A stretch of DNA of 36,521 nucleotides, from positions 1 through 36,521 of IMG/VR virus record IMGVR_UViG_2778261065_000031; one strand, written 5' to 3'. The position numbers and the translations under genes were made by a program. The notes under the pieces are model-generated. The model worked only from the letters and a program-made list of their open reading frames with translations, had not been told where the DNA came from and ran no database searches. Source of the DNA: a virus. Lineage: Duplodnaviria > Heunggongvirae > Uroviricota > Caudoviricetes. Numbering within the stretch: position 1 is the first letter of the stretch; each line of letters begins with the position of its first letter. Shown one piece after another: positions 2,085 through 36,521 of this stretch.

Positions 2085-4082
2085 CTATTCTGACAACGCA
2101 TCAGACTTAGCCCCCTGCGTCATAGCGTTAATTACCTTTTGTGCCTGCTGCATGGCTTTCTCAAACGCTGTTGATCCGCGTGGGGTATTTGCCATTCGTA
2201 GCATTGCATTTCTGAATGGCTCGCTCTCATAGGCGCGAGTAAGAAGTCCGTAGCTTACTGCTGCGCCAGTTGTCGCCGGGTTCATTGCCGTCCCATACCC
2301 AATTATGAACGGGATAGTTTGCTGCCCTGTGGGTGTTGTTACTGCCGCTTTTGCAGCCTGCTGCGTGGATTGCAGGTAGTTTTTTAATCCTTTCAGATAA
2401 GCAGCGTCCTGCCCCTTAAATGTGATGCCAGTCTGGTTTTGCAGGATGTTAAGCTGCCGAAGGAACTGGTCAGGGGATCCGCCAGATTTCTCCATCGCCT
2501 TTCCAATGATGCCATTGCGCATTTGCGCCCTGCCAACACGACCAACTGAGTTATACAGCGTCTTAATTTCCGATTTGTTCTTGCTGAATAGCATGTTGTT
2601 GACAACTTCCGGTGTCAGGTCGCCTTTCATGAGAACATTCTTCAGCCTGGTATTCTTTAGTTTCGCCGCTTCGTCAGCGTAGACGGCATTGGCCTGCTGA
2701 TATTTACGGAGAGTATCATTGCCAAGATTCTGACCAATGGCACCATTGATATCGTCTGTCATCGCCTTGTAAACGCGCTGAATGGCAGCATCGGAACGGT
2801 TTGGTAACACTGGTCGTTCCCCCTTCACGTCCATTCTGAACTGGCTGCGCAGATCGCTTAATTGCTTCAAATCCAGATTTACCGGACCATCAGGACCAGC
2901 ATTGCGAATAAGCTCATCACGATAGGATTGAAGTTTTGAAATCGTCTCGTTATCAGCGACCTTACCAAGCTTCTGCAGGTTAGATATCTCAGTATCAATC
3001 TGCTGAATTGCTCGCACAGGCTGAATGTTTACTCCAGCCATAGCATTCTGAACCTGCTCCAGTCGATTACCGGCAGCACGACGAATTCCTGATGTTTTCG
3101 CTTTAAGGCTGTCAATAACAACCGCTGGATCATACTCACCGAATTTATCAGCAAATCTCTGCACCAACTGGCTTCTCGCTTCCTGTTGCGTTGCTCTCAT
3201 TCCGCTTGTGCCAGCCAGAGGGATATTTTCTGCTGTAGTCTGCGCCATTTTTCCGACGCGGGAAGTAGGTTGTAACAGGTCTGTGGTGTGCAGAGGCACT
3301 CCTTCACGCTCTGCAAACCTGATAGCCTGTTGCGCTTCTGGCGCTATCGCACCACGAACTCCACGATAAGCAGCACCTAATCCACGTCCGGCAGCGTTAA
3401 TAGCTCCGCCAGCCAGAACGCCAACGCCTAAGTCGGTGGCTAGTGCTTCCGCATCATCTTTCACACTGTTTGCAGCAAGTGATCCAACTGCGTTTTCAGC
3501 GAGAAGGCGAGTTGCACCCTGAGCAATTCGACCAGCAAGTGTTGGTGCCTGTGTTGCCGCTCTCTCAACGCCGGCAGGTGTGAGGTAAGGCAATGCTTCA
3601 GCAAATACCCTGCCCTCTGTCGTTTGTGGAGTCAGCGCACCTTGCTGAAGGCCAAAGTCCTGCTCTAATCCATGCGTTGTTACTCGTGGCGCGGGTTGAT
3701 ATGTTCCATCGCCAATGCCGAGTTTACCGCCAGCCCATGCAGCCGCGCTTGTTACAGCATCGGCAACTGATGCAGGTATGTTTGCCACGTTCACGCCAGC
3801 CTGCACCAGTCCGCGACCAGTCTCTTTCACTGCTTCACCAAGATCAGACATAAATCCACTTTGCTGTGGTTGTTGCTGTGCTACTGGTTGCTGTGTCTCC
3901 ACTGGCTGCACAGATGGCAATGGATAGGCTGCATAGAAAGCTTGCTTAGCCTGCTCTGCATTTTCTCCGGCTTGCGGGGCCACGACTTCATTGAAGTATT
4001 GCTCCTGAGCCTGCGCTTTTTGTTCTGGTGCTAACGCCTGATACTGTGGAGAGGCGATAACATCTTTCCATGCTTTAGCCAT
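2085..4082 (-). CDS. Ejection (injection) protein, P22 gp16-like
   Basis: 665 aa, Gln/Ala-rich, last gene of the ejection-protein trio by position; TAATG overlap with upstream gene. Confidence 0.7.
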   Translation of the reverse strand: MAKAWKDVIASPQYQALAPEQKAQAQEQYFNEVVAPQAGENAEQAKQAFYAAYPLPSVQPVETQQPVAQQQPQQSGFMSDLGEAVKETGRGLVQAGVNVANIPASVADAVTSAAAWAGGKLGIGDGTYQPAPRVTTHGLEQDFGLQQGALTPQTTEGRVFAEALPYLTPAGVERAATQAPTLAGRIAQGATRLLAENAVGSLAANSVKDDAEALATDLGVGVLAGGAINAAGRGLGAAYRGVRGAIAPEAQQAIRFAEREGVPLHTTDLLQPTSRVGKMAQTTAENIPLAGTSGMRATQQEARSQLVQRFADKFGEYDPAVVIDSLKAKTSGIRRAAGNRLEQVQNAMAGVNIQPVRAIQQIDTEISNLQKLGKVADNETISKLQSYRDELIRNAGPDGPVNLDLKQLSDLRSQFRMDVKGERPVLPNRSDAAIQRVYKAMTDDINGAIGQNLGNDTLRKYQQANAVYADEAAKLKNTRLKNVLMKGDLTPEVVNNMLFSKNKSEIKTLYNSVGRVGRAQMRNGIIGKAMEKSGGSPDQFLRQLNILQNQTGITFKGQDAAYLKGLKNYLQSTQQAAKAAVTTPTGQQTIPFIIGYGTAMNPATTGAAVSYGLLTRAYESEPFRNAMLRMANTPRGSTAFEKAMQQAQKVINAMTQGAKSDALSE

Positions 4083-5377
4083 TAATCACCCCATAGTGAA
4101 GAAAAGTTACTGCCAGTAGTAGATTGTTGCCTTGGAATATTCTGCACCGGCTCCTGATAATCAAACTGTTTTTTAACAGTGCTCAACTTGCTTTCAAGCT
4201 GATTTCTAATCTTTCCGATAGAGTCACGAAAAGCCTTTTCACTCATTTTGGGGCTTAGGGCACCAACCGCATCGGATAATTTTTTACCCTCAGCATCTGA
4301 AAGAGCGCCCATACCCTTCAGGGACTGCACCATAGGAAGGAATGTTTGAGCTTTAAAGGTGTCGAGCCTTGCTTCAAAGTTAGCCGCATCAGAGCCAGGA
4401 ACTGTCGGAAACGCTGAGCGAATTCCTACTGCTTTTGAAAGGCCGGGGCTTTGCTCTATCTCGTTGAGAGAATCAAGCGCGGTGCTGAACGTATCAACTG
4501 CACCCTGAGCAGCGGCCTGCCTGTCAGCGCGGGCTATGTCAGCCTTTTGCCGAACATCTGCCTGTTTCTGTTTTAGCTCTTCAAGCTTTAACTGATTGCT
4601 TTCTCTGGCTATTTGTCTGTCCAGAGCCTTTTCTTGTAATTCTGCTCTTTGTATTTCGCGGGAAAGAGCAGCATTCTGTGCGCTGATGTTCTGTCCACGT
4701 ATCTGGATGTCCTGACCTCGAGCTGTTAGTGCTTCTCCGGCCTGATTGCTGCGGATTGTCTCTGCCAGTCTGCCTCGGTCAATTTCACGACCAGCCATCT
4801 TGTCCTGAACATTGAAGTAATCAATCGGACCAAGCGCAGCCATCCCAAGGTGATCAACAAACTCACCAAATCCTGAAGGGTTCTGCTGATACATCTGAGC
4901 AACGCTGTTAGGGTCAACACCGACGCGAGTCAGTTCCTTGGCGTTGTTTTGCAGCCATGATTGCATTGCTTCTGGAGACGATGACGCAAGGCGTGCGCCA
5001 GCCGCTAAGGTGCCGATAGAATTACGCTGATCTTCATCAATGAATCCCATGCCTTTACGAACGGATTCAATCTGGTCTGGATATTGAGTAGCCAACTGAC
5101 GCAAAGCACCGCGATCACCAGACGCATAAGCATTAGCGTACGCCTGCTGAAATTCTTTCTGCCGCTGAGCCTGCTTTTCCTGCTGAAACACCCCTGCAAT
5201 ACCTGAAAGACCTTGCAAAGCAGTCAGCCCAACATTGTTAGCGCCTGAACGCTCAATATCATTGTTCTGCCTGATAAGCTGAAGCGTATTGCCGATGTCA
5301 TTTACGCTCGGAGCGTTTGAGTTGACGCCGCCGATACCAGCTAACAATCCGCCATTTGATCCTTGCCAAGTAGCCAT
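4082..5377 (-). CDS. Ejection protein, P22 gp20-like
   Basis: 431 aa; position between gp7-like and gp16-like genes. Confidence 0.7.
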   Translation of the reverse strand: MATWQGSNGGLLAGIGGVNSNAPSVNDIGNTLQLIRQNNDIERSGANNVGLTALQGLSGIAGVFQQEKQAQRQKEFQQAYANAYASGDRGALRQLATQYPDQIESVRKGMGFIDEDQRNSIGTLAAGARLASSSPEAMQSWLQNNAKELTRVGVDPNSVAQMYQQNPSGFGEFVDHLGMAALGPIDYFNVQDKMAGREIDRGRLAETIRSNQAGEALTARGQDIQIRGQNISAQNAALSREIQRAELQEKALDRQIARESNQLKLEELKQKQADVRQKADIARADRQAAAQGAVDTFSTALDSLNEIEQSPGLSKAVGIRSAFPTVPGSDAANFEARLDTFKAQTFLPMVQSLKGMGALSDAEGKKLSDAVGALSPKMSEKAFRDSIGKIRNQLESKLSTVKKQFDYQEPVQNIPRQQSTTGSNFSSLWGD

Positions 5378-5386
5378 GATTACTCC

Positions 5387-6079
5387 TTAAAACAACGAGC
5401 TAAGCAATCCAATACCAGCACCAATGCCAGCGCCCCAAGGTGTTGATGTTCCCAAAAGGCTGGCAAGACCTGCACCGGCAATCGCACCAGACGTGCCACC
5501 GCTAATTGCAGTCTGAAGACTTGATGGTTTATTGGCATTAGCAGCGGCAAGAGCTGCGCTTTGCTGTGCAATGCTGCTCATGTTGTTGGCGTACGTCTGC
5601 CCGGCGTTTGCCTGACCTTGCAGCGCACCAAGCCCAACGTTTGCCAGATTGTTGTAATTGCTCATCTGATTTGATAACCAAGACTGACCGAGTGTCGGCG
5701 CGATCGTAGCCAGTTGATTGCTTGTGGCTGTCGAACCAAGTCCACCCGTCGCCTCCGCAGCAGCAAGACTCTGGTAACGCGCCTGACCTGCAAGGTCTTT
5801 ATACTGCTGAGAGTTGTAATACTGATTAAGTGCCTGCCCCTGACCTTCTAAACTGGAAAGATTCTGCAACTGGTTAACATACTGCTCCGCAAGAGGCGTG
5901 AACGGAGCAAGATTTTTCATGATCGTCTGCCACTGCTGATTTTGCAGGTCTGCGGCATACTTCTGAGCTTCTGCTGCATACTTTGCGCTTTTATCAGAGC
6001 TGCCACCTTTCCCGCCTTTTTCAGGGCAATAAGGTTCCTCGCCGCGCAGTTTTCTGCCCAGCTTAAATGCATATAACAT
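5387..6079 (-). CDS. Ejection protein, P22 gp7-like
   Basis: 230 aa; N-terminus MLYAFKLGRKLRGEEP and Gly/Ala-rich tail resemble P22 gp7 (229 aa). Confidence 0.7.
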   Translation of the reverse strand: MLYAFKLGRKLRGEEPYCPEKGGKGGSSDKSAKYAAEAQKYAADLQNQQWQTIMKNLAPFTPLAEQYVNQLQNLSSLEGQGQALNQYYNSQQYKDLAGQARYQSLAAAEATGGLGSTATSNQLATIAPTLGQSWLSNQMSNYNNLANVGLGALQGQANAGQTYANNMSSIAQQSAALAAANANKPSSLQTAISGGTSGAIAGAGLASLLGTSTPWGAGIGAGIGLLSSLF

Positions 6080-29668: not shown

Positions 29669-30134
29669 AATAGCCAATGAATACGCAAAGCTGATGGATT
29701 CAGATTTAGAGCCAGAGATGATTGCTGACACAATAGAAGGAATGGAAGGAGAATTTACCGATAAAATAGAGCAACTTCTTGCCATTATTAAAAATGAATC
29801 TGGTTATGCTGAACGCCTCAAGGACGAGGCAAAGTCACTAAATGAGAGAGCCGCAGTAATTCAAAATAAGATTGACAGCATTATGGCGTATATAGCGTCA
29901 TCGCTTGAAATGGTTGGCAAGAAAAAGATTCGAGCAGGTATTCACCAGGTAACAATTCGCAAACCGTCAGAAATTGTAGAAATAATCGACTCAAGCGCCC
30001 TTCCTCCTGAATACGTTGAGTTTGAAACGACAATTAAAGCCGACAAACTGGCAATCAAACACCAGCTAAAAGCAGGAATAAATATCCCCGGCGCTCAACT
30101 CAAAGTTGGGAAACCTTCACTTCTTATCAAATAA
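29652..30134 (+). CDS. Gp157-family protein (RecT-associated); GTG start
   Basis: GGAGG SD 6 nt upstream of GTG at 29652; family assignment by recall. Confidence 0.55.
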   Translation: MSKLYEIANEYAKLMDSDLEPEMIADTIEGMEGEFTDKIEQLLAIIKNESGYAERLKDEAKSLNERAAVIQNKIDSIMAYIASSLEMVGKKKIRAGIHQVTIRKPSEIVEIIDSSALPPEYVEFETTIKADKLAIKHQLKAGINIPGAQLKVGKPSLLIK

Positions 30135-30145
30135 CGGTATCGCCT

Positions 30146-30460
30146 ATGAAAAAGACTCCATGGGAGAAATGGGAAGTCGATTTCTTGCGCGAAGTGGCGG
30201 CGACAATGCCAGTTGAAGTTATCGCTGAAAAACTGGAAAGGACTGAAAAAGCAGTTATGGCGAAAGCAACAAGGATTGGCGCTGACATTGTTAGCCGACT
30301 TCGTGGAAGACGCTGGACAAGAGCCGAAGTATCACTTTTCGGTAAGTTCTCCGCAGAAGAAATAGCAATTGCAACCTGCCGCTCAATTTATTCAGTAAGA
30401 GCTATGCGATACAAGCTAAAAAAACTCAATGAAGAAAGAGCAGGCATACGAATAAATTAA
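30146..30460 (+). CDS. Hypothetical basic protein (104 aa)
   Basis: ORF in co-directional early-left array; no family recognised. Confidence 0.5.
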   Translation: MKKTPWEKWEVDFLREVAATMPVEVIAEKLERTEKAVMAKATRIGADIVSRLRGRRWTRAEVSLFGKFSAEEIAIATCRSIYSVRAMRYKLKKLNEERAGIRIN

Positions 30461-30476
30461 CATGGAGTAATTAACA

Positions 30477-30758
30477 ATGAAGCTAAACATCGACCTTGGA
30501 AAATACGTTATTACCGGAACCAAACACGACCTGATTCTTAGCGAAAGAGGAATTATCAAAGAAGGTGAGAATGCAGGGAAAGAAACACTAAGCCGTATCG
30601 GTTATTACAGCAAGTTTGAGCATCTGGTTAAAGAGTTATGCAACCGTGAAATTCTGTTATCTCAAGCGCGGACGCTACAGGATATTCAGCAGCATATCGA
30701 GACTTTAGGTGTGTCACTTAGCATGGCCGTTGACCAGTTCGTGGAGAGTAAATCATGA
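30477..30758 (+). CDS. Hypothetical protein (93 aa)
   Basis: ORF; ATGA overlap with the next small ORF. Confidence 0.5.
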
Positions 30759-30922
30759 GAGGACTTGCATACAATCCCGGCATTCTTCCGGCAGAAATGA
30801 TTATTAGCCAACGCGTAAAGCCAATGCCATCGAGAGAGGAATTGCTTAAGAGAAATTCTTTTCCATCAGTGAATCAAAACAAATATCTGAATGCGATGTG
30901 GCGCAAAGGAGGCAACCAGTGA
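30755..30922 (+). CDS. Small hypothetical protein (55 aa) ending RKGGNQ
   Basis: Below track cutoff; translationally coupled at both ends; C-terminus shared with the 31560 gene. Confidence 0.35.
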
Positions 30923-31563
30923 GTAACCGTTTTTACATGATGTGCTTGCGTGAAACTGTGGGTAATAACGCCTCATTCCATTGCCATAACGGCAATGGTT
31001 ACAGTTCTGATATCGATCGAGCACATGTTTACACGCAGGAAGAAGCCCAAAAAGCCTGGAATTGTGGTCGAGATATCGATCAGCCTGTTTGCGCTGATAG
31101 CGTGGATGCAATGGCTGTGTGGCACGTTGATTGCCAGTACATCCCTACAGAAAGCCTGATTGAGTCAGATTGCACTGCGTATGTGGCCTACAAAAAAGGT
31201 TGCTGGAATGGCAACGATGTTTACTGGCTTCAACACGGTGGATTGCCAACCGATGACTTCAGTAAAGCAACCATCTTTAGCGTCGCCAACAAAAACGAAC
31301 CAGGAATAGTTTGGTTGCCATTTTCCATTGCCGGTGCAGCAAAGCGGCGGACGTTCAATATCAATAATTTTAACCGCAGAACAATGGTTCAGGGCGCAGG
31401 TTTGATCATGCCTGACTGGTTGAAAAAGCAAAACAGAAGAAAGAAGTCACGAAGCGGGAAGGTGCGCTGGAATTGTCCGCATTGCGGAAAAATCACCTGG
31501 CAGTACAGCCCATATGATTTTGAAGGCTGTAGTGATTACAACTGTGAAGGATGGCGAGAATGA
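30919..31563 (+). CDS. Cysteine-rich protein with C-terminal zinc-ribbon-like motif (GTG start)
   Basis: AAGGAGG SD then GTG at 30919; [11 protein letters not shown]...CSDYNCEGW. Confidence 0.5.
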
Positions 31564-32252
31564 CAATTGACTATCAGGTACTGCGTGAGGCGGCAGAAAA
31601 GGCAACACCAGACGAATGGGTCGCATTTATTTCGACGGATACTGGTACTTATGCGGTGCACACGCCCGGTGATGAACGATGTGAAGACGTTATCAAATGG
31701 ACAGGCTTTGATGGACAGAAAAATGCAGAGAACAACGCTCGTCATGTTGCCGCGTTCAACCCAAAGGTTGCACTGGAGCTGCTTGGTGAAATTAAGTGCT
31801 TGGAGGACACAAATATTGATGCCACGTGCCGAATTTCAGAGCTTGAGACTAATCTCGCTGCGCTGGTGGCAGAGAACGCTGGGCTGAAACACGCAATGGC
31901 CGTAACTCTTGAGCATGTGTCGGTCACGGATGCAGGGCAGGCCGGAGTTGCTGCAATGATTATCAACGATGCCCTGCACCACAGCGAAACTCCAGCTACC
32001 GATGCTTTTCTAGCTGAAGTGAAGACTGAAGCACGCAAGGAAGGCGCTTATTTTGTGGCGAACAGAATGCTGGCTGCCTGGGAAGCTGGTTTTATTGATG
32101 ATACTGCGAAGAACGCCGCGGATATTGCCCGGATGATTCTTACCTCTACTGAGTTTATGGCTAATGCGCCGGAAGGCGATTTTGACCGCTCATTCTCTGA
32201 TGGCGTTCTCGAAGATATCGCCGCCCAGCTTCGCAAAGGAGGCAACCAGTGA
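31560..32252 (+). CDS. Ea22-like family protein (paralog 1), tentative
   Basis: N-terminal [17 protein letters not shown] and FNPKVALELLGEIK shared with the next gene; ATGA overlap upstream. Confidence 0.45.
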   Translation: MTIDYQVLREAAEKATPDEWVAFISTDTGTYAVHTPGDERCEDVIKWTGFDGQKNAENNARHVAAFNPKVALELLGEIKCLEDTNIDATCRISELETNLAALVAENAGLKHAMAVTLEHVSVTDAGQAGVAAMIINDALHHSETPATDAFLAEVKTEARKEGAYFVANRMLAAWEAGFIDDTAKNAADIARMILTSTEFMANAPEGDFDRSFSDGVLEDIAAQLRKGGNQ

Positions 32253-32956
32253 GCAAGATTGATTATCAAAAGCTTCGTAAAATCGCTGAAAAAACAAAAA
32301 TTGCTGGTGAAGCACCTGTAATGCCTTTCGATCAGCGAATTAATGCGCTTAACGATTTTATGAAGCACTTTTCGCCAGATATCGCGCTGGCATTGTTGGA
32401 TGAACGGGAAAGAAACCAGCAATACATCAAATCACGCGACCAGGAGAACGAGGATATTGCGCTAACGGTAGGGAAGCTGAGAGTTGAGCTTGAGGAAGTA
32501 AAACAACACGCTGAAGAATTATCCGAAACCAAGGCTGTTCGTAACCAATGGCGGCCAGATATTTGCCCAATAACCGGACGTGCATTTTTCATGTGGATTG
32601 AGCATCCAACATTGGGAAATGTGCCGACATATGGTGGCCCATTAGATAGTTACACCATTCCAACAAAGGACGGTGACGGTGAGTTTTCATGTGAGCGTTA
32701 CGATCATGATTTTGGCGGTTGGGTAGAAAGCGAATGTCTTGGGTTATATCTGATTGATGATAGAGAACAATGCAGGGTCTACGAACTGGAGGAACGCGTT
32801 AAGGAACTGGATGCTCGGGAAATATCGCTCCCGGAACGTAGCAGCATGCTTCATCGAACAGATTTTAACGAGGATTACCACACGGTAATGGCATACAAAG
32901 TTTCTGAAGTCATCGCTGCAATCCGCGCTGCTGGTATTCGCATCAAAGGAGATTGA
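32249..32956 (+). CDS. Ea22-like family protein (paralog 2), tentative; GTG start
   Basis: N-terminal MSKIDYQKLRKIAEK and FSPDIALALLDERE; preceded by the same 22-bp junction as the 30919 gene. Confidence 0.45.
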   Translation: MSKIDYQKLRKIAEKTKIAGEAPVMPFDQRINALNDFMKHFSPDIALALLDERERNQQYIKSRDQENEDIALTVGKLRVELEEVKQHAEELSETKAVRNQWRPDICPITGRAFFMWIEHPTLGNVPTYGGPLDSYTIPTKDGDGEFSCERYDHDFGGWVESECLGLYLIDDREQCRVYELEERVKELDAREISLPERSSMLHRTDFNEDYHTVMAYKVSEVIAAIRAAGIRIKGD

Positions 32957-32957
32957 G

Positions 32958-33473
32958 ATGGCGTTAACACACCGCGAACTCTGTCAGATTGCGTACAAGT
33001 TCCTTAAGCGCAACGGGTTCAAGGTTTGCTTTCATGACCGCTTTATAGCTGTAACCAGTACCGGAGAACAGCCAGATGCTATGGGATTCAGAAATTCAGC
33101 ATCATGCCTGATAGAGGCGAAGTGTTCTCGTGCTGACTTGTTGGCAGATAGAAAAAAGCGTTTTCGTAAAAATCCGTCTCTTGGAATGGGCGACTGGCGA
33201 TTCTTTATTAGTGAGCCGGGAATTATTTCAATTGAGGATTTACCACCTGGCTGGGGATTACTTCACGTTGTTAACGGAAGAGTACGGAAAGTACATGGGT
33301 GGCCCAGGGGTAATTGCTGTTGGGGTAATCCTGACGATAAGCCATTTACTGGAAATAAGCAGGTTGAATGCGATTACATGTTATCTGCATTAAGGCGCAT
33401 GGAGTTGAGAGGGCACCTTAATGAAATATATGACGGTGTAATTGTTAATAAGAAAGAAGGAAACGCGGCATGA
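32958..33473 (+). CDS. Putative PD-(D/E)xK-fold nuclease (171 aa)
   Basis: Candidate motif GEQPDAMGF...CLIEAKCS (PD ... EAK); 4-nt overlap with the DUF551 gene. Confidence 0.45.
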   Translation: MALTHRELCQIAYKFLKRNGFKVCFHDRFIAVTSTGEQPDAMGFRNSASCLIEAKCSRADLLADRKKRFRKNPSLGMGDWRFFISEPGIISIEDLPPGWGLLHVVNGRVRKVHGWPRGNCCWGNPDDKPFTGNKQVECDYMLSALRRMELRGHLNEIYDGVIVNKKEGNAA

Positions 33474-34189
33474 TCACTATTACCAAAGAGCGACTACTGA
33501 CAATCAAGCAGTGGCGCGAAACATACGGACCTGGTAGCAACGTTGTACTGCCAGCAGAAGAAGCGGAAGAACTGGCACGAATTGCTCTGGCATCACTGGA
33601 AGCAGAACCAGTTGCTTATATTTTCAAACATCCGGCCGGGAAATTATTCTGGGCTTTAACGGATGAAAGCAATAAAGAGCAAGCGGACGTTATTCCTGTT
33701 TATGCTGCCGCGCCTGCGTCGGTTGTGCCGGATGATGCATCAGGGTCGCTTGCTTATGCTTACAAAGAGCTTACGCCTGAGATTATGCGCGGTCATATCG
33801 CTGTATTCGAGCGATATGGAATAGCCCCAAACGATAGCATTACCACAATTCAGGCACTGCGAATCGCGCTGGATGGCATAGAGCGGAGCGACGCCATGCT
33901 TCATGGTGCCGAACCCGTAAGCCAAACTTACAAGTTGAACGAGCTATCTGGCAACTATCCGGCAACTCCGGATAGTTGGATAAGCTGTAGTGAGCGAATG
34001 CCGGAAAAGAACAAGAACGTGCTTATTTCGGTGAATTTCGACAGCTCTCTGGTTGAACCGCTAATATGCTCCGCACGCTATACCGGAAGCACATTCCGGC
34101 GAGGAGAAGCAACGATTAAGCCGGGTAATGGTATTGAGCAGGCAACTCACTGGATGCCGCTACCGGAACCGCCGCAGGAGGCGAAATGA
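33470..34189 (+). CDS. DUF551 domain protein
   Basis: C-terminal WISCSERMPEKNKNVLIS...THWMPLPEPP typical of DUF551 by recall. Confidence 0.6.
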   Translation: MITITKERLLTIKQWRETYGPGSNVVLPAEEAEELARIALASLEAEPVAYIFKHPAGKLFWALTDESNKEQADVIPVYAAAPASVVPDDASGSLAYAYKELTPEIMRGHIAVFERYGIAPNDSITTIQALRIALDGIERSDAMLHGAEPVSQTYKLNELSGNYPATPDSWISCSERMPEKNKNVLISVNFDSSLVEPLICSARYTGSTFRRGEATIKPGNGIEQATHWMPLPEPPQEAK

Positions 34190-34446
34190 TGGATGTTCAA
34201 GAGAAGGTTTTGCAGGTGATGCGTTCCCGTGCAGCCCTGCAAGAGAAAGTTCTCGGCGGGGAATATCCATTCAGGATGGCAACCTGGAGTCTGCGGTTGG
34301 CAATGGAGAAGGAATTTCCTGATGAAGAATGGCGTTCGGCAGATTTGCGCAAAACTCTTATGGAGATGGCTAAAGACGGAACAGTATCCAAAGATACCTA
34401 TGCCAGCCGGATTGGTCAGGCGGTATGGAGACTGGAGGTGAGGTAA
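34186..34446 (+). CDS. Hypothetical protein (86 aa)
   Basis: ORF; TAATG overlap with the downstream gene. Confidence 0.45.
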   Translation: MMDVQEKVLQVMRSRAALQEKVLGGEYPFRMATWSLRLAMEKEFPDEEWRSADLRKTLMEMAKDGTVSKDTYASRIGQAVWRLEVR

Positions 34447-34730
34447 TGGCTAACCTGCAACTTGCCGTAAAAGGTGAATACTTCGATGCCATGATTCGTG
34501 GAGAGAAAACGGAAGAGTATCGCTTGTGTAATGACTACTGGAATAAGCGAATTATGTTCAGGGAGTATGACCGCCTGATTATCACAAAGGGATATCCGAA
34601 GCGCGACGATTCCAGCCGTAGAATTGATGTTCCGTATGACGGATATGAAATCAAGACAATCACACATCCACACTTCGGTGATAAACCGGTAAAGGTGTTC
34701 GCGATAAAGGTGAATATCGGCAATGAATAA
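34446..34730 (+). CDS. ASCH-like (DUF3850-type) small protein
   Basis: From MANLQLAVKGEYFDAMIRGEKTEEYR; pattern fits ASCH/PUA-like phage proteins by recall; GGAGGTGAGG SD. Confidence 0.5.
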   Translation: MANLQLAVKGEYFDAMIRGEKTEEYRLCNDYWNKRIMFREYDRLIITKGYPKRDDSSRRIDVPYDGYEIKTITHPHFGDKPVKVFAIKVNIGNE

Positions 34731-34802
34731 CAATCCTCGAACTCGCGGGGATTTCTTTTATCTGAACTCACTACGGCGGGTTTTGTTTTATGGAGACAAG
34801 AA

Positions 34803-35147
34803 ATGTCAGATTTGGCTATGAAGGTTTTGAAATGGCAATCGACTGGCGATGTTGGCATCAGTAGCGCAACTCTTGCCTCAATCGCATGTGGACTGAAAAA
34901 GAATATCTATGGTCATCACTTCGGCGCTCCCCATGACGCAGCCGATTTCAGACGATGCGTTGCACTTGTTGAGCAGATTCCAGAAATCAGAGATTCATTC
35001 AACAAGGTTGCAAAGCGCGTTCCGGCATTCAAAGGAATCCTCAACGAATGGGATTCCCTCGTTGCTCTGTTGAAGTCTGAAATGAAGATACACGGAAACA
35101 AAGCACCAGAGACTTACAGAAGAATCAGCGAGCTACGCAAGGACTAA
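34803..35147 (+). CDS. Hypothetical protein (114 aa)
   Basis: ORF upstream of xis; no family recognised. Confidence 0.45.
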   Translation: MSDLAMKVLKWQSTGDVGISSATLASIACGLKKNIYGHHFGAPHDAADFRRCVALVEQIPEIRDSFNKVAKRVPAFKGILNEWDSLVALLKSEMKIHGNKAPETYRRISELRKD

Positions 35148-35251
35148 CCATGAAATAACACCGCCGGCCTGTTCATTGCTCAATGATATCCAGACCTACC
35201 ATCGCCGCATCAATGCGGCTTTTTCTTGCGTGTAATTGCGGAGACTTTGCG

Positions 35252-35470
35252 ATGTACTTAACACTTCAGGAGTGGAACGCACGCCAGCGACGTCCAAGAA
35301 GTCTTGAAACAGTTCGTCGATGGGTGCGCGAATGCAGGATATTCCCTCCTCCGGTTAAGGATGGAAGAGAGTATCTGTTCCACGAATCAGCGGTAAAGGT
35401 TGACTTAAATCGACCAGTAACAGGTAGCCTTTTGAAGAGGATCAGAAATGGGAAGAAGGCGAAGTCATGA
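35252..35470 (+). CDS. xis: Excisionase Xis; track ORF trimmed to internal ATG
   Basis: From MYLTLQEWNARQRRPRSLETVRRWVRECRIFPPPVKDGREYLF essentially identical to lambda Xis (72 aa). Confidence 0.92.
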   Translation: MYLTLQEWNARQRRPRSLETVRRWVRECRIFPPPVKDGREYLFHESAVKVDLNRPVTGSLLKRIRNGKKAKS

Positions 35471-36521
35471 GCGCCGGGATTTACCCCCTAACCTTTATAT
35501 AAGAAACAATGGATATTACTGCTACAGGGACCCAAGGACGGGTAAAGAGTTCGGATTAGGCAGAGACAGAAGGATAGCAGTTTCAGAGGCTATTCAGGCC
35601 AATATTGAGTTGCTATCCGAGAACAGGCGTGAGTCACTGATAGACAGAATTAAAGGCGCTGACGTAATCACTCTTCATGTGTGGCTTGACCGATATGAAA
35701 CAATCCTCAGCGAGAGGGGTGTCAGGCCGAAAACTCTACTCGACTACGCCAGCAAAATCAGGGCAATCCGAAGAAAATTGCCGGACAAACCGCTCGCTGA
35801 CATATCAACGAAAGAGGTGGCAACAATGCTAAACACCTACGTAGCAGAAGGTAAAGCGGCCTCCGCAAAATTAATCAGATCAACCCTTGTTGACGTTTTT
35901 CGTGAAGCAATAGCCGAGGGGCATGTGGCAACGAATCCGGTAACAGCAACCCGTACAGCAAAGTCAGAAGTAAGGCGCTCAAGGCTGACAGCTAATGAGT
36001 ATGTCGAGATTTACCATGCAGCCGAACCTCTCCCTATCTGGCTAAGGCTGGCGATGGATTTGGCCGTCGTTACAGGGCAGAGAGTCGGCGATTTGTGCAG
36101 AATGAAATGGTCAGACATAAACGACAACCATCTTCACATTGAACAGAGTAAAACAGGGGCTAAACTCGCCATTCCGCTAACGCTAACGATTGACGCGCTC
36201 AATATCTCATTGGCTGATACACTACAGAAATGCAGGGAGGCCAGCAGCAGTGAAACAATAATCGCATCAAAGCATCACGATCCGCTTTCCCCGAAAACAG
36301 TATCGAAGTATTTTACAAAGGCGAGAAATGCATCAGGACTCTCATTTGATGGAGACCCGCCAACATTCCATGAACTGCGTAGCCTGTCGGCGAGGCTATA
36401 CCGGAACCAGATTGGCGATAAGTTTGCTCAACGTCTTCTCGGGCATAAATCAGATTCAATGGCGGCGCGGTATAGGGACAGCCGTGGACGGGAATGGGAC
36501 AAAATTGAAATCGACAAATGA
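35448..36521 (+). CDS. int: Tyrosine integrase (lambda Int family)
   Basis: 357 aa; MGRRRSHERRDLPPNLYIRNNGYYCYRDPRTGKEFGLGRDRRIA and C-terminal HELRSLSARLY...LLGHKSD match lambda Int; 23-nt overlap with xis. Confidence 0.97.
   Translation: MGRRRSHERRDLPPNLYIRNNGYYCYRDPRTGKEFGLGRDRRIAVSEAIQANIELLSENRRESLIDRIKGADVITLHVWLDRYETILSERGVRPKTLLDYASKIRAIRRKLPDKPLADISTKEVATMLNTYVAEGKAASAKLIRSTLVDVFREAIAEGHVATNPVTATRTAKSEVRRSRLTANEYVEIYHAAEPLPIWLRLAMDLAVVTGQRVGDLCRMKWSDINDNHLHIEQSKTGAKLAIPLTLTIDALNISLADTLQKCREASSSETIIASKHHDPLSPKTVSKYFTKARNASGLSFDGDPPTFHELRSLSARLYRNQIGDKFAQRLLGHKSDSMAARYRDSRGREWDKIEIDK

Follow-up and report, generated by a model that had tools for sequence, protein, structure and literature searches.

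How does one short sequence come to close two unrelated genes of the same phage operon and to open the genes that follow them? The question is raised by CGCAAAGGAGGCAACCAGTGAG, a sequence of 22 bp found in a stretch of viral DNA of 36,521 nucleotides (Caudoviricetes; IMG/VR record IMGVR_UViG_2778261065_000031, positions 1 to 36,521), which we call the window and by which we mean the whole of that stretch. Two exact copies are present, at 30902-30923 and 32232-32253, both on the plus strand and with a start-to-start distance of 1330 bp. In each copy the codons R-K-G-G-N-Q and the TGA after them complete the upstream gene, and an AAGGAGG Shine-Dalgarno (SD) sequence, followed by the 6-nt spacer CAACCA, leads to a GTG that starts the next gene, with stop and start overlapping as GTGA. 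An initial annotation had reported both positions, a distance of about 1.3 kb and the combination of RKGGNQ-stop, SD and GTG start, and all of these details are exact in both copies. It had also proposed that lambdoid phages exchange modules by homologous recombination at such boundaries. We consider it probable that the element is a translational-coupling junction, native to the eae-ead gene pair, which also serves as a short island of homology for module exchange.

Copy 1 supplies the last six codons and the stop of a DUF2737 gene and begins a gene that we call gene X, and copy 2 connects two genes for Ea22-like proteins, A and B (Table 1). The anatomy is that of translational coupling, with an SD 6 nt before the start and inside the upstream open reading frame (ORF), and a stop that overlaps the start. 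For an identical public contig, an independent gene caller picked the same GTG starts, which are also those given in the PGAP/GenBank annotation of relatives. The junction is predicted to couple the downstream gene to the upstream one through termination and reinitiation.

The window holds no further copy at up to 3 mismatches, and 100 dinucleotide-preserving shuffles gave no match, so that a chance repeat (0 expected) is ruled out. The sequences flanking the two copies are unrelated, except for two of the three bases directly after them. The repeat is therefore a discrete block of 22-25 bp and not the edge of a longer duplication, and a longer hidden duplication is likewise ruled out by these flanks. 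Two further candidates were rejected. An RNA element is ruled out by the lack of any Rfam match at E<=1 in 30000-33500 and by folding around both copies that is no better than that of shuffles (z = +1.33 and +0.06). A moron-like promoter or terminator is ruled out because no promoter-like site was found in 30300-33200, and terminator-like sites occur at background level only, with none at the element.

A more local event deserves separate consideration, namely a tandem duplication of an Ea22-family gene of which the 22-mer would be the surviving end. The Ea22-like genes are indeed tandem paralogues, and their heads are related (31566-31606 versus 32255-32295; 77-92% in relatives). However, apart from the unrelated flanks, a distance of 1330 bp between the copies is at odds with the register of about 690 bp between the two Ea22-like genes, and the junction that precedes Ea22-like A is of a different, ATGA type. 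Moreover, copy 1 sits on DUF2737 in 24 other contigs with no second copy nearby, and the bracketed cassette is found intact in P1-like plasmids. We therefore regard such a duplication as very improbable.

Spread and native identity of the junction

The initial annotation had suggested that related prophages be searched for the 22-mer at gene boundaries, and there it proves to be abundant. An exact-match scan found it in at least 120 viral contigs. Its frame is identical in 123 of 123 instances, always at a stop/start boundary, with ...RKGGNQ-stop upstream and a downstream protein that begins V-S (V-R in one). A junction consensus of 50 nt is present in 2403 of 5426 complete E. coli genomes (44%), with 4704 places in all, of which 686 are on plasmids. 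The same consensus matched 403 phage records; 61 of these are Arthrobacter phages whose matches, at E about 1 and located in dUTPase genes, are spurious. Carriers include HK620, CUS-3, HK446, mEp043, Stx phages, Salmonella P22-like phages and P1/P7. Hence, the lambdoid setting that had been proposed is right as far as lambdoid phages are concerned, but it is too narrow, since P1-like phage-plasmids carry the element as well. In a sparse collection with one genome per species, the exact 22-mer had a single match, in an Escherichia sp., and thus appears to be essentially a sequence of the E. coli group. One phage record from Actinobacillus pleuropneumoniae (PP818812.1, H119) has the junction at 91.5% identity beside an Ead/Ea22-like gene. 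The host family, Pasteurellaceae, is unexpected, and this could be a real transfer or a mislabelled or contaminated record.

The origin of the sequence can be traced by comparison with well-known phages. HK620 has the order hkaI (DUF2737, ending RSGKK-stop with an ATGA overlap), hkaH (Eae-like, ending ...ADQLRKGGSQ-stop) and hkaG (Ead-like, beginning VSKIDYQALREKAEK...), and its hkaH/hkaG junction differs from the 22-mer by one base. The Eae protein of P22 ends ...APEGDFDRSFADGVIEDIAAQLRKGVQS-stop. Since HK620 hkaH/hkaG and P22 eae share this tail, these sequence comparisons identify the junction between eae and ead in P22/HK620-type phages as the native setting of the 22-mer, which forms its core. 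Neither the 22-mer, its sub-strings nor RKGGNQ had a match in the literature that was searched, which did not include the text of Clark et al. 2001 on HK620; the junction, being carried by that phage, may already figure there. Papers on epsilon34 and phage L do not discuss the junction.

Constraint, partner genes and breakpoints

By the test set in the initial annotation, the proposal would fail if the 22-mer were absent from relatives or confined to one gene family within a longer duplication, and the outcome favors the proposal. Relatives present many different upstream tails, and downstream either an Ea22/Ead head or one of at least seven unrelated genes. About one fifth of the instances have DUF2737 upstream, and the others have varied Eae/Ea22-type C-termini that share only ...(A)AQ(L/I)RKGGNQ-stop. 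The usual downstream partner is an Ea22/Ead head, VS[K/E]I[D/N]YQALREAAEKA..., and the unrelated ones are gene X and genes beginning VSGKRMTN, VSNSARLQ, VSVTVEKID, VSESKCQ, VSIVQRCR and VSVYLIDK. When flanks were typed by the sequence 31-90 nt from the element, 122 instances resolved into 67 combinations of 19 upstream and 23 downstream types, so that gene content beside each copy, a comparison that the initial annotation had called for, does differ among relatives. The VSGKRMTN, VSNSARLQ, VSVTVEKID, VSVYLIDK and VSESKCQ genes are each found behind 2-4 unrelated upstream genes. Gene X elsewhere also follows other upstream genes, always through a junction of the family GGAGGCA[A/T/G]CCAGTGA[G/A]TAA (for example P7 upf87.4/upf87.6). 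Between contexts that are unrelated on both sides, the exact shared island has a median length of 27 nt (interquartile range 23-32, n=4239 pairs). At eae-ead type junctions homology reaches about 35-80 nt, by way of the AAQL codons and the Ea22 head, and at joints with unrelated genes it amounts to only 16-25 nt.

Among the upstream partners, a group of Eae-like proteins (U02, U03, U06, U07, U14 and U15, from loci L003-L120) share both ...RAQGVEM(F) and ...FAA(Q/E)LRKGGNQ-stop. Between these conserved ends lie about 15-25 residues that are wholly different, a short hypervariable segment.

The degenerate pattern MGNAARGGNGGNAAYCARTGAG, which covers all synonymous spellings of RKGGNQ-stop followed by G together with a few SKGGNQ-stop variants, returned 120 contigs. 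The exact 22-mer accounts for 84 of them, and the other 36 are variants that differ by a single base (by two bases in one case) and only at positions 1 (giving Ser), 3, 12, 15 or 18. The core AAAGGAGG is invariant in 120 of 120, and AAA-GGA-GG is kept although AAG, GGT, GGC and GGG are allowed, so there is constraint on the SD at the level of its nucleotides, and drift at the remaining synonymous sites. A variant at position 18, CGCAAAGGAGGCAACCAATGAG (L123, L142 and L143), changes CAG to CAA synonymously and turns the GTG start of the Ea22-like gene into ATG. Behind other upstream genes, junction variants yield the tails LLGGIQ-stop, HQGGIQ-stop and LLGGNQ-stop. Since the ribosome-binding site (RBS) lies within the upstream reading frame, any gene placed upstream gains a ...GG(N/S/I)Q-stop tail, and the GGNQ-type tail looks like the translation of an RBS rather than a selected peptide.

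The invariance of this core also suits a rival explanation, in which the junction is a translation signal only, kept for its quality as a coupling junction and carried passively as the 5' leader of downstream genes or the 3' tail of upstream ones, with the mosaic arising from illegitimate recombination and then selection for gene boundaries that are intact (as in the view of Hendrix and Juhala) or from homologous crossovers in larger homologies nearby. In a blastn survey of 28000-35500 against all fetched loci, the ends of high-scoring segment pairs (HSPs) cluster at 30903, where 33 HSPs end, and at 30923-30926, where 23 do, and megablast against the phage and E. coli collections breaks at the same positions. 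Beyond ...NAMW, 33 of 58 DUF2737 genes continue with CGGAGTGGGAAGAAATGA (RSGKK-stop and ATGA, leading into eae/hkaH), 24 with the exact 22-mer and 1 with a variant of it, and the two tail forms part exactly at the 5' edge of the 22-mer. On the P1-like plasmid p19AR1321C, positions 30902-32268 of the window are present at 97.9%, that is, from copy 1 to just beyond copy 2, behind an upstream gene that differs from that of the window.

A further case is a P1-like contig (L162; GCA_009767015.1) in which 30908-33606 of the window recurs at coordinates 3349-6047 with 99.89% identity (3 mismatches in 2699 bp). Its Ea22-like A protein is identical to ours and its upstream gene is unrelated. To the left of the block the contig reads ...ATTTGCTG and the window ...TGGCGCAAA, each running directly into the common GGAGGCAACCAGTGAG; the two are unrelated up to that point, which places the left end of the exchange inside copy 1. 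The block indicates that a P22-like prophage and a P1-like phage-plasmid exchanged DNA very recently. It contains gene X, both Ea22-like genes, a 171-aa gene and the first 137 nt of a DUF551 gene. The right end, near 33606, coincides with a cluster of 30 HSP ends and falls within the DUF551 gene, not at a gene boundary.

The two copies also have a natural counterpart in which only one remains. A relative (L047) has the collapsed form DUF2737-junction-Ea22-like B, at 98% and 96% identity and without the 1.3 kb between the copies; this is the expected collapse of two copies, or else the state before the cassette was inserted. Forms with the cassette, as in the window, and without it, as in L047, thus both occur in nature. 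Mapping of the phase of single-nucleotide polymorphisms, for which data are sparse, places the CGT, GGT and CAA variants of the junction mostly with the upstream module.

These patterns are difficult to reconcile with a signal that is merely carried along. Illegitimate joints should each be unique, whereas 15-22 identical nucleotides, including the functionally free CAACCA, recur in 67 combinations. Downstream genes of unrelated kinds each occur behind several unrelated upstream genes, no other sequence being shared, and the recent exchange at 99.89% identity has its end within the element. We thus find an explanation by translation signal alone doubtful, even though it has real points in its favor, which are considered with the other reservations below.

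In the explanation that we prefer, the junction, with a minimum of 22 nt and a median of 27 nt, would act as a small homology island between otherwise unrelated neighbors, a role suggested by its identity in such different settings. A homologous crossover there, most plausibly promoted by phage single-strand-annealing recombinases such as the RecT of this prophage, could swap, insert or delete whole genes and leave reading frames and translation signals undamaged. Rad52-like phage recombinases (Red-beta, RecT and Erf) drive the formation of mosaics at homologies that are short or diverged, and the minimal segment for efficient pairing (MEPS) is given as 23-27 bp in the case of Red-beta and 31-34 bp in that of RecA (PMC3945230). 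The median island of 27 nt thus sits at the reported Red-beta minimum. The two direct copies in the window bracket a two-gene cassette, gene X plus Ea22-like A, that is found in P1-like plasmids and absent from the collapsed relative. Copy 1 itself would go back to an in-frame fusion of the DUF2737 gene with the final 22 nt of eae, which has since spread. Its left joint is best read, on the sequences compared, as an old in-frame deletion of eae or an equivalent illegitimate event, because its homology with the eae tail is only CG. The left limit of the repeat is thus the DUF2737 joint and the right limit is the start of gene X, which makes the length of 22 bp at this locus a historical accident; the eae-ead junction as such is longer, with these 22 bp as its common core.

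Several observations weigh against a role in recombination. The joint just described, with its 2 nt of microhomology, looks non-homologous, as passive carriage of the signal would predict. At 22 nt the bare core is below the RecA MEPS and at or below the lower limit for Red-beta, so exchange at the core should be inefficient. The pattern also fits crossovers in longer conserved blocks nearby, namely the DUF2737 gene (about 170 bp), the Ea22 heads (about 45 nt) and 32375-32505. The conservation of the 22-mer (70% exact) exceeds only modestly what is expected from a background divergence of about 4%, so that, beyond selection on the SD and on coding, nothing points to selection for recombination itself. 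The viral loci were selected by exact match to the 22-mer, which biases some of the counts. Finally, of the proposed module exchange, the conserved boundary and the coincidence of its edges with breaks in similarity have been observed, and the recombination step itself is inferred from the comparisons between relatives.

The last of these blocks, 32375-32505, comprises about 130 bp of the coiled-coil segment of Ea22-like B (...ERERNQQYIKSRDQENEDIALTVGKLRVELE...) and is shared more widely than any other piece of the region, with 49 HSP starts and 47 ends. It is likely to be a second crossover site, for swaps of C-terminal domains. In P7 (L158), upf88.3 (3144-3830) consists of the head of Ea22-like A (31560-31596) and the body of Ea22-like B (32384-32956), and by its composition it looks like a product of unequal recombination between tandem paralogues.

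It is also conceivable that the junction is a dedicated recombination site, either resembling attC or serving as target of a site-specific recombinase or homing endonuclease. The cassette-like combinatorics and the direct repeats around a two-gene unit would be natural consequences of such a site. However, no inverted repeat or dyad symmetry was found in the 22-mer, which also lacks stable structure, and no gene for a recombinase or HNH protein is regularly found beside it; the only integrase is a lambda-type enzyme at the end of the operon. In addition, breakpoints are scattered (30903, 30908, 30923-30926 and 32268) instead of marking a single phosphodiester bond. A site of this kind is the least credible of the explanations that we considered.

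The combination of genes in the window is itself rare, as judged by the finding that 30400-33000 is covered to at least 80% in 0 of 5426 complete E. coli genomes and 0 of 50,697 phage records. Several draft assemblies are 100% identical to the window over 8.7 kb.

Relation to known boundary sequences

Exchange of modules at short conserved boundary sequences is a long-standing concept for lambdoid phages (Susskind & Botstein 1978 and, for HK620, Clark et al. 2001; as cited in PMC3029335). The junction described here resembles these boundary, or linker, sequences in being short and conserved at a gene boundary, in having alternative non-homologous modules on its flanks and in coinciding with the breakpoints of mosaicism, and each of these properties was observed in our comparisons. 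It differs in that it is also found in P1-like phage-plasmids and has been quantified over thousands of genomes, and in that one edge of the junction in the window is better explained by illegitimate deletion. The concept of boundary exchange being already known, the element is a well-documented further case and not a new kind of system.

Other arrangements share some of its features. Coupled ATGA/GTGA junctions with an SD in the upstream ORF are common in phage operons and have the same anatomy. Ordinary coupling junctions are gene-specific, however, whereas this one is identical, spacer included, across unrelated gene pairs on which it imposes the same GGNQ-stop tail. Integron attC cassettes are alike in forming arrays of exchangeable single genes with a recurring junction element, but here there is no integron integrase, attC-like imperfect palindrome or single cleavage point, and exchange would be based on homology. 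T4-type phages possess promoter-early stem-loops (PeSLs), reported by Arbiol et al. in 2010. Cluster I mycobacteriophages Island3 and Brujita have repeated boundary sequences of about 50 bp (PMC3029335). Both the Cluster I repeats and the PeSLs resemble the present junction as short boundary repeats through which small gene cassettes are thought to be inserted, deleted or swapped in general recombination. They are intergenic (repeats in the former, a promoter plus hairpin in the latter), whereas the junction consists of coding sequence and RBS, is unstructured and promoterless, and is shorter.

The proteins on either side of the junction have their own record of mosaicism. In lambda and Stx phages, Ea22/Ead proteins are described as sharing their N-terminal head and coiled coil, whereas their C-terminal domains are unrelated (PMC10834534, and Dydecka 2020 cited there). 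The family is the same as ours, PF13935, and the text searched mentions neither a conserved 3' tail or junction nor its reuse with genes other than Ea22.

The present example is clean and abundant: close to half of the complete E. coli genomes carry a junction of 22-35 nt that is reused among dozens of combinations of genes. It would be a convenient natural substrate for measuring the shortest homology that phage recombinases can use. It also explains the GGNQ-stop tail common to unrelated proteins of the region. The junction dictates the C-terminal tails and the GTG starts here, which calls for caution in annotation and in the building of protein families.

The surrounding operon and a second linker

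The window is a P22-like prophage, as indicated by a P22-type portal and coat protein and by the head-binding N-terminus of a tailspike. The element lies in the early-left (PL) operon, on the plus strand between the genes for RecT and Xis/Int (Table 1). After RecT come Sipho_Gp157, two small genes (the second encoding DUF5405), DUF2737, gene X and Ea22-like A and B, followed by the 171-aa gene, the gene for the DUF551 protein, three small genes, Xis and Int. Nearly all gene boundaries in this stretch of the operon are ATGA or GTGA overlaps.

Table 1. Positions of the junction copies, the second linker and selected genes in the window
Feature	Coordinates	Strand	Remarks
cI-like repressor	25700-26401		
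RecT	28757-29668		1.2 kb upstream of the element
Degenerate third copy of the junction core, GGAGGTTGCCAGTGAGCAA	29641-29659	+	3' end of RecT; 79-84% identical to the other two
DUF2737 gene, 55 aa	30755-30922	+	Pfam PF10930, E=1.4e-30, model over residues 1-51
Junction copy 1	30902-30923	+	AAGGAGG 30906-30912, GTG 30919-30921, TGA 30920-30922; ends DUF2737 gene (...MWRKGGNQ-stop), starts gene X
Gene X, 214 aa	30919-31563	+	phrog_2457; = P7 upf87.6; first gene between the two copies
Ea22-like A, 230 aa	31560-32252	+	Pfam PF13935; head and coiled coil of Ead/Ea22 type; overlaps gene X by ATGA
Junction copy 2	32232-32253	+	AAGGAGG 32236-32242, GTG 32249-32251, TGA 32250-32252; ends Ea22-like A (...AAQLRKGGNQ-stop), starts Ea22-like B; native eae-ead type
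Ea22-like B, 235 aa	32249-32956	+	Pfam PF13935; begins at GTG of copy 2
Second linker, Ead-type tail IRIKGD-stop, ATTCGCATCAAAGGAGATTGAGATG	32936-32960	+	SD within tail; next ATG 1 nt past stop
Xis	35183-35470		
Int	35448-36521		Lambda-type with arm-binding domain; sole integrase; end of operon

A second boundary in the same operon is built along similar lines. The Ead-type tail at the end of Ea22-like B has the general form ATTCGCATCAAAGGAGAGTGA[T/G]ATG (IRIKGE-stop, or IRIKGD-stop in the window), and the fetched loci contain 103 instances of it. Downstream of these are 37 distinct 15-aa N-termini, at least 12 of them unrelated, and HSP starts and ends cluster at 32930-32960. The Ead-type tail is thus a second linker of the same design, which is general to the operon.

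It is tempting to go further and to regard the junction and the Ead-tail linker together as a maintained, recombinase-independent cassette system, in which tail, SD and start form standard plugs. We consider this unlikely. If true, early-left accessory genes would be exchanged in frame and ready for expression among P22-like, lambda/Stx-like and P1-like phages. Exchange would be carried out by phage annealing recombinases, making the system a homology-based analogue of integron cassettes, and it would have been selected for faster diversification of accessory genes, possibly host-modulating or anti-defence ones.

PADLOC gave no defence-system match for the genes of the cassette. Ea22-like A, second of the two genes that the copies bracket, matches P22 Eae at its C-terminus (APEGDFDRSF.DGV.EDIAAQLRKG). 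For gene X there was no Pfam, PADLOC or PDB sequence match, and its sole match was phrog_2457, a family of unknown function. Its C-terminus has paired Cys motifs (NCPHCGK...CSDYNCEGW), suggesting a zinc ribbon, and the GenBank note for its P7 equivalent, upf87.6, calls the product a putative tyrosine phosphatase. Further upstream, at the degenerate third copy of the junction core, the start of Sipho_Gp157 is more likely to be the GTG at 29652 (VSK...) than the TTG at 29646 chosen by the ORF finder, and both Pfam and the gene caller agree on 29652.

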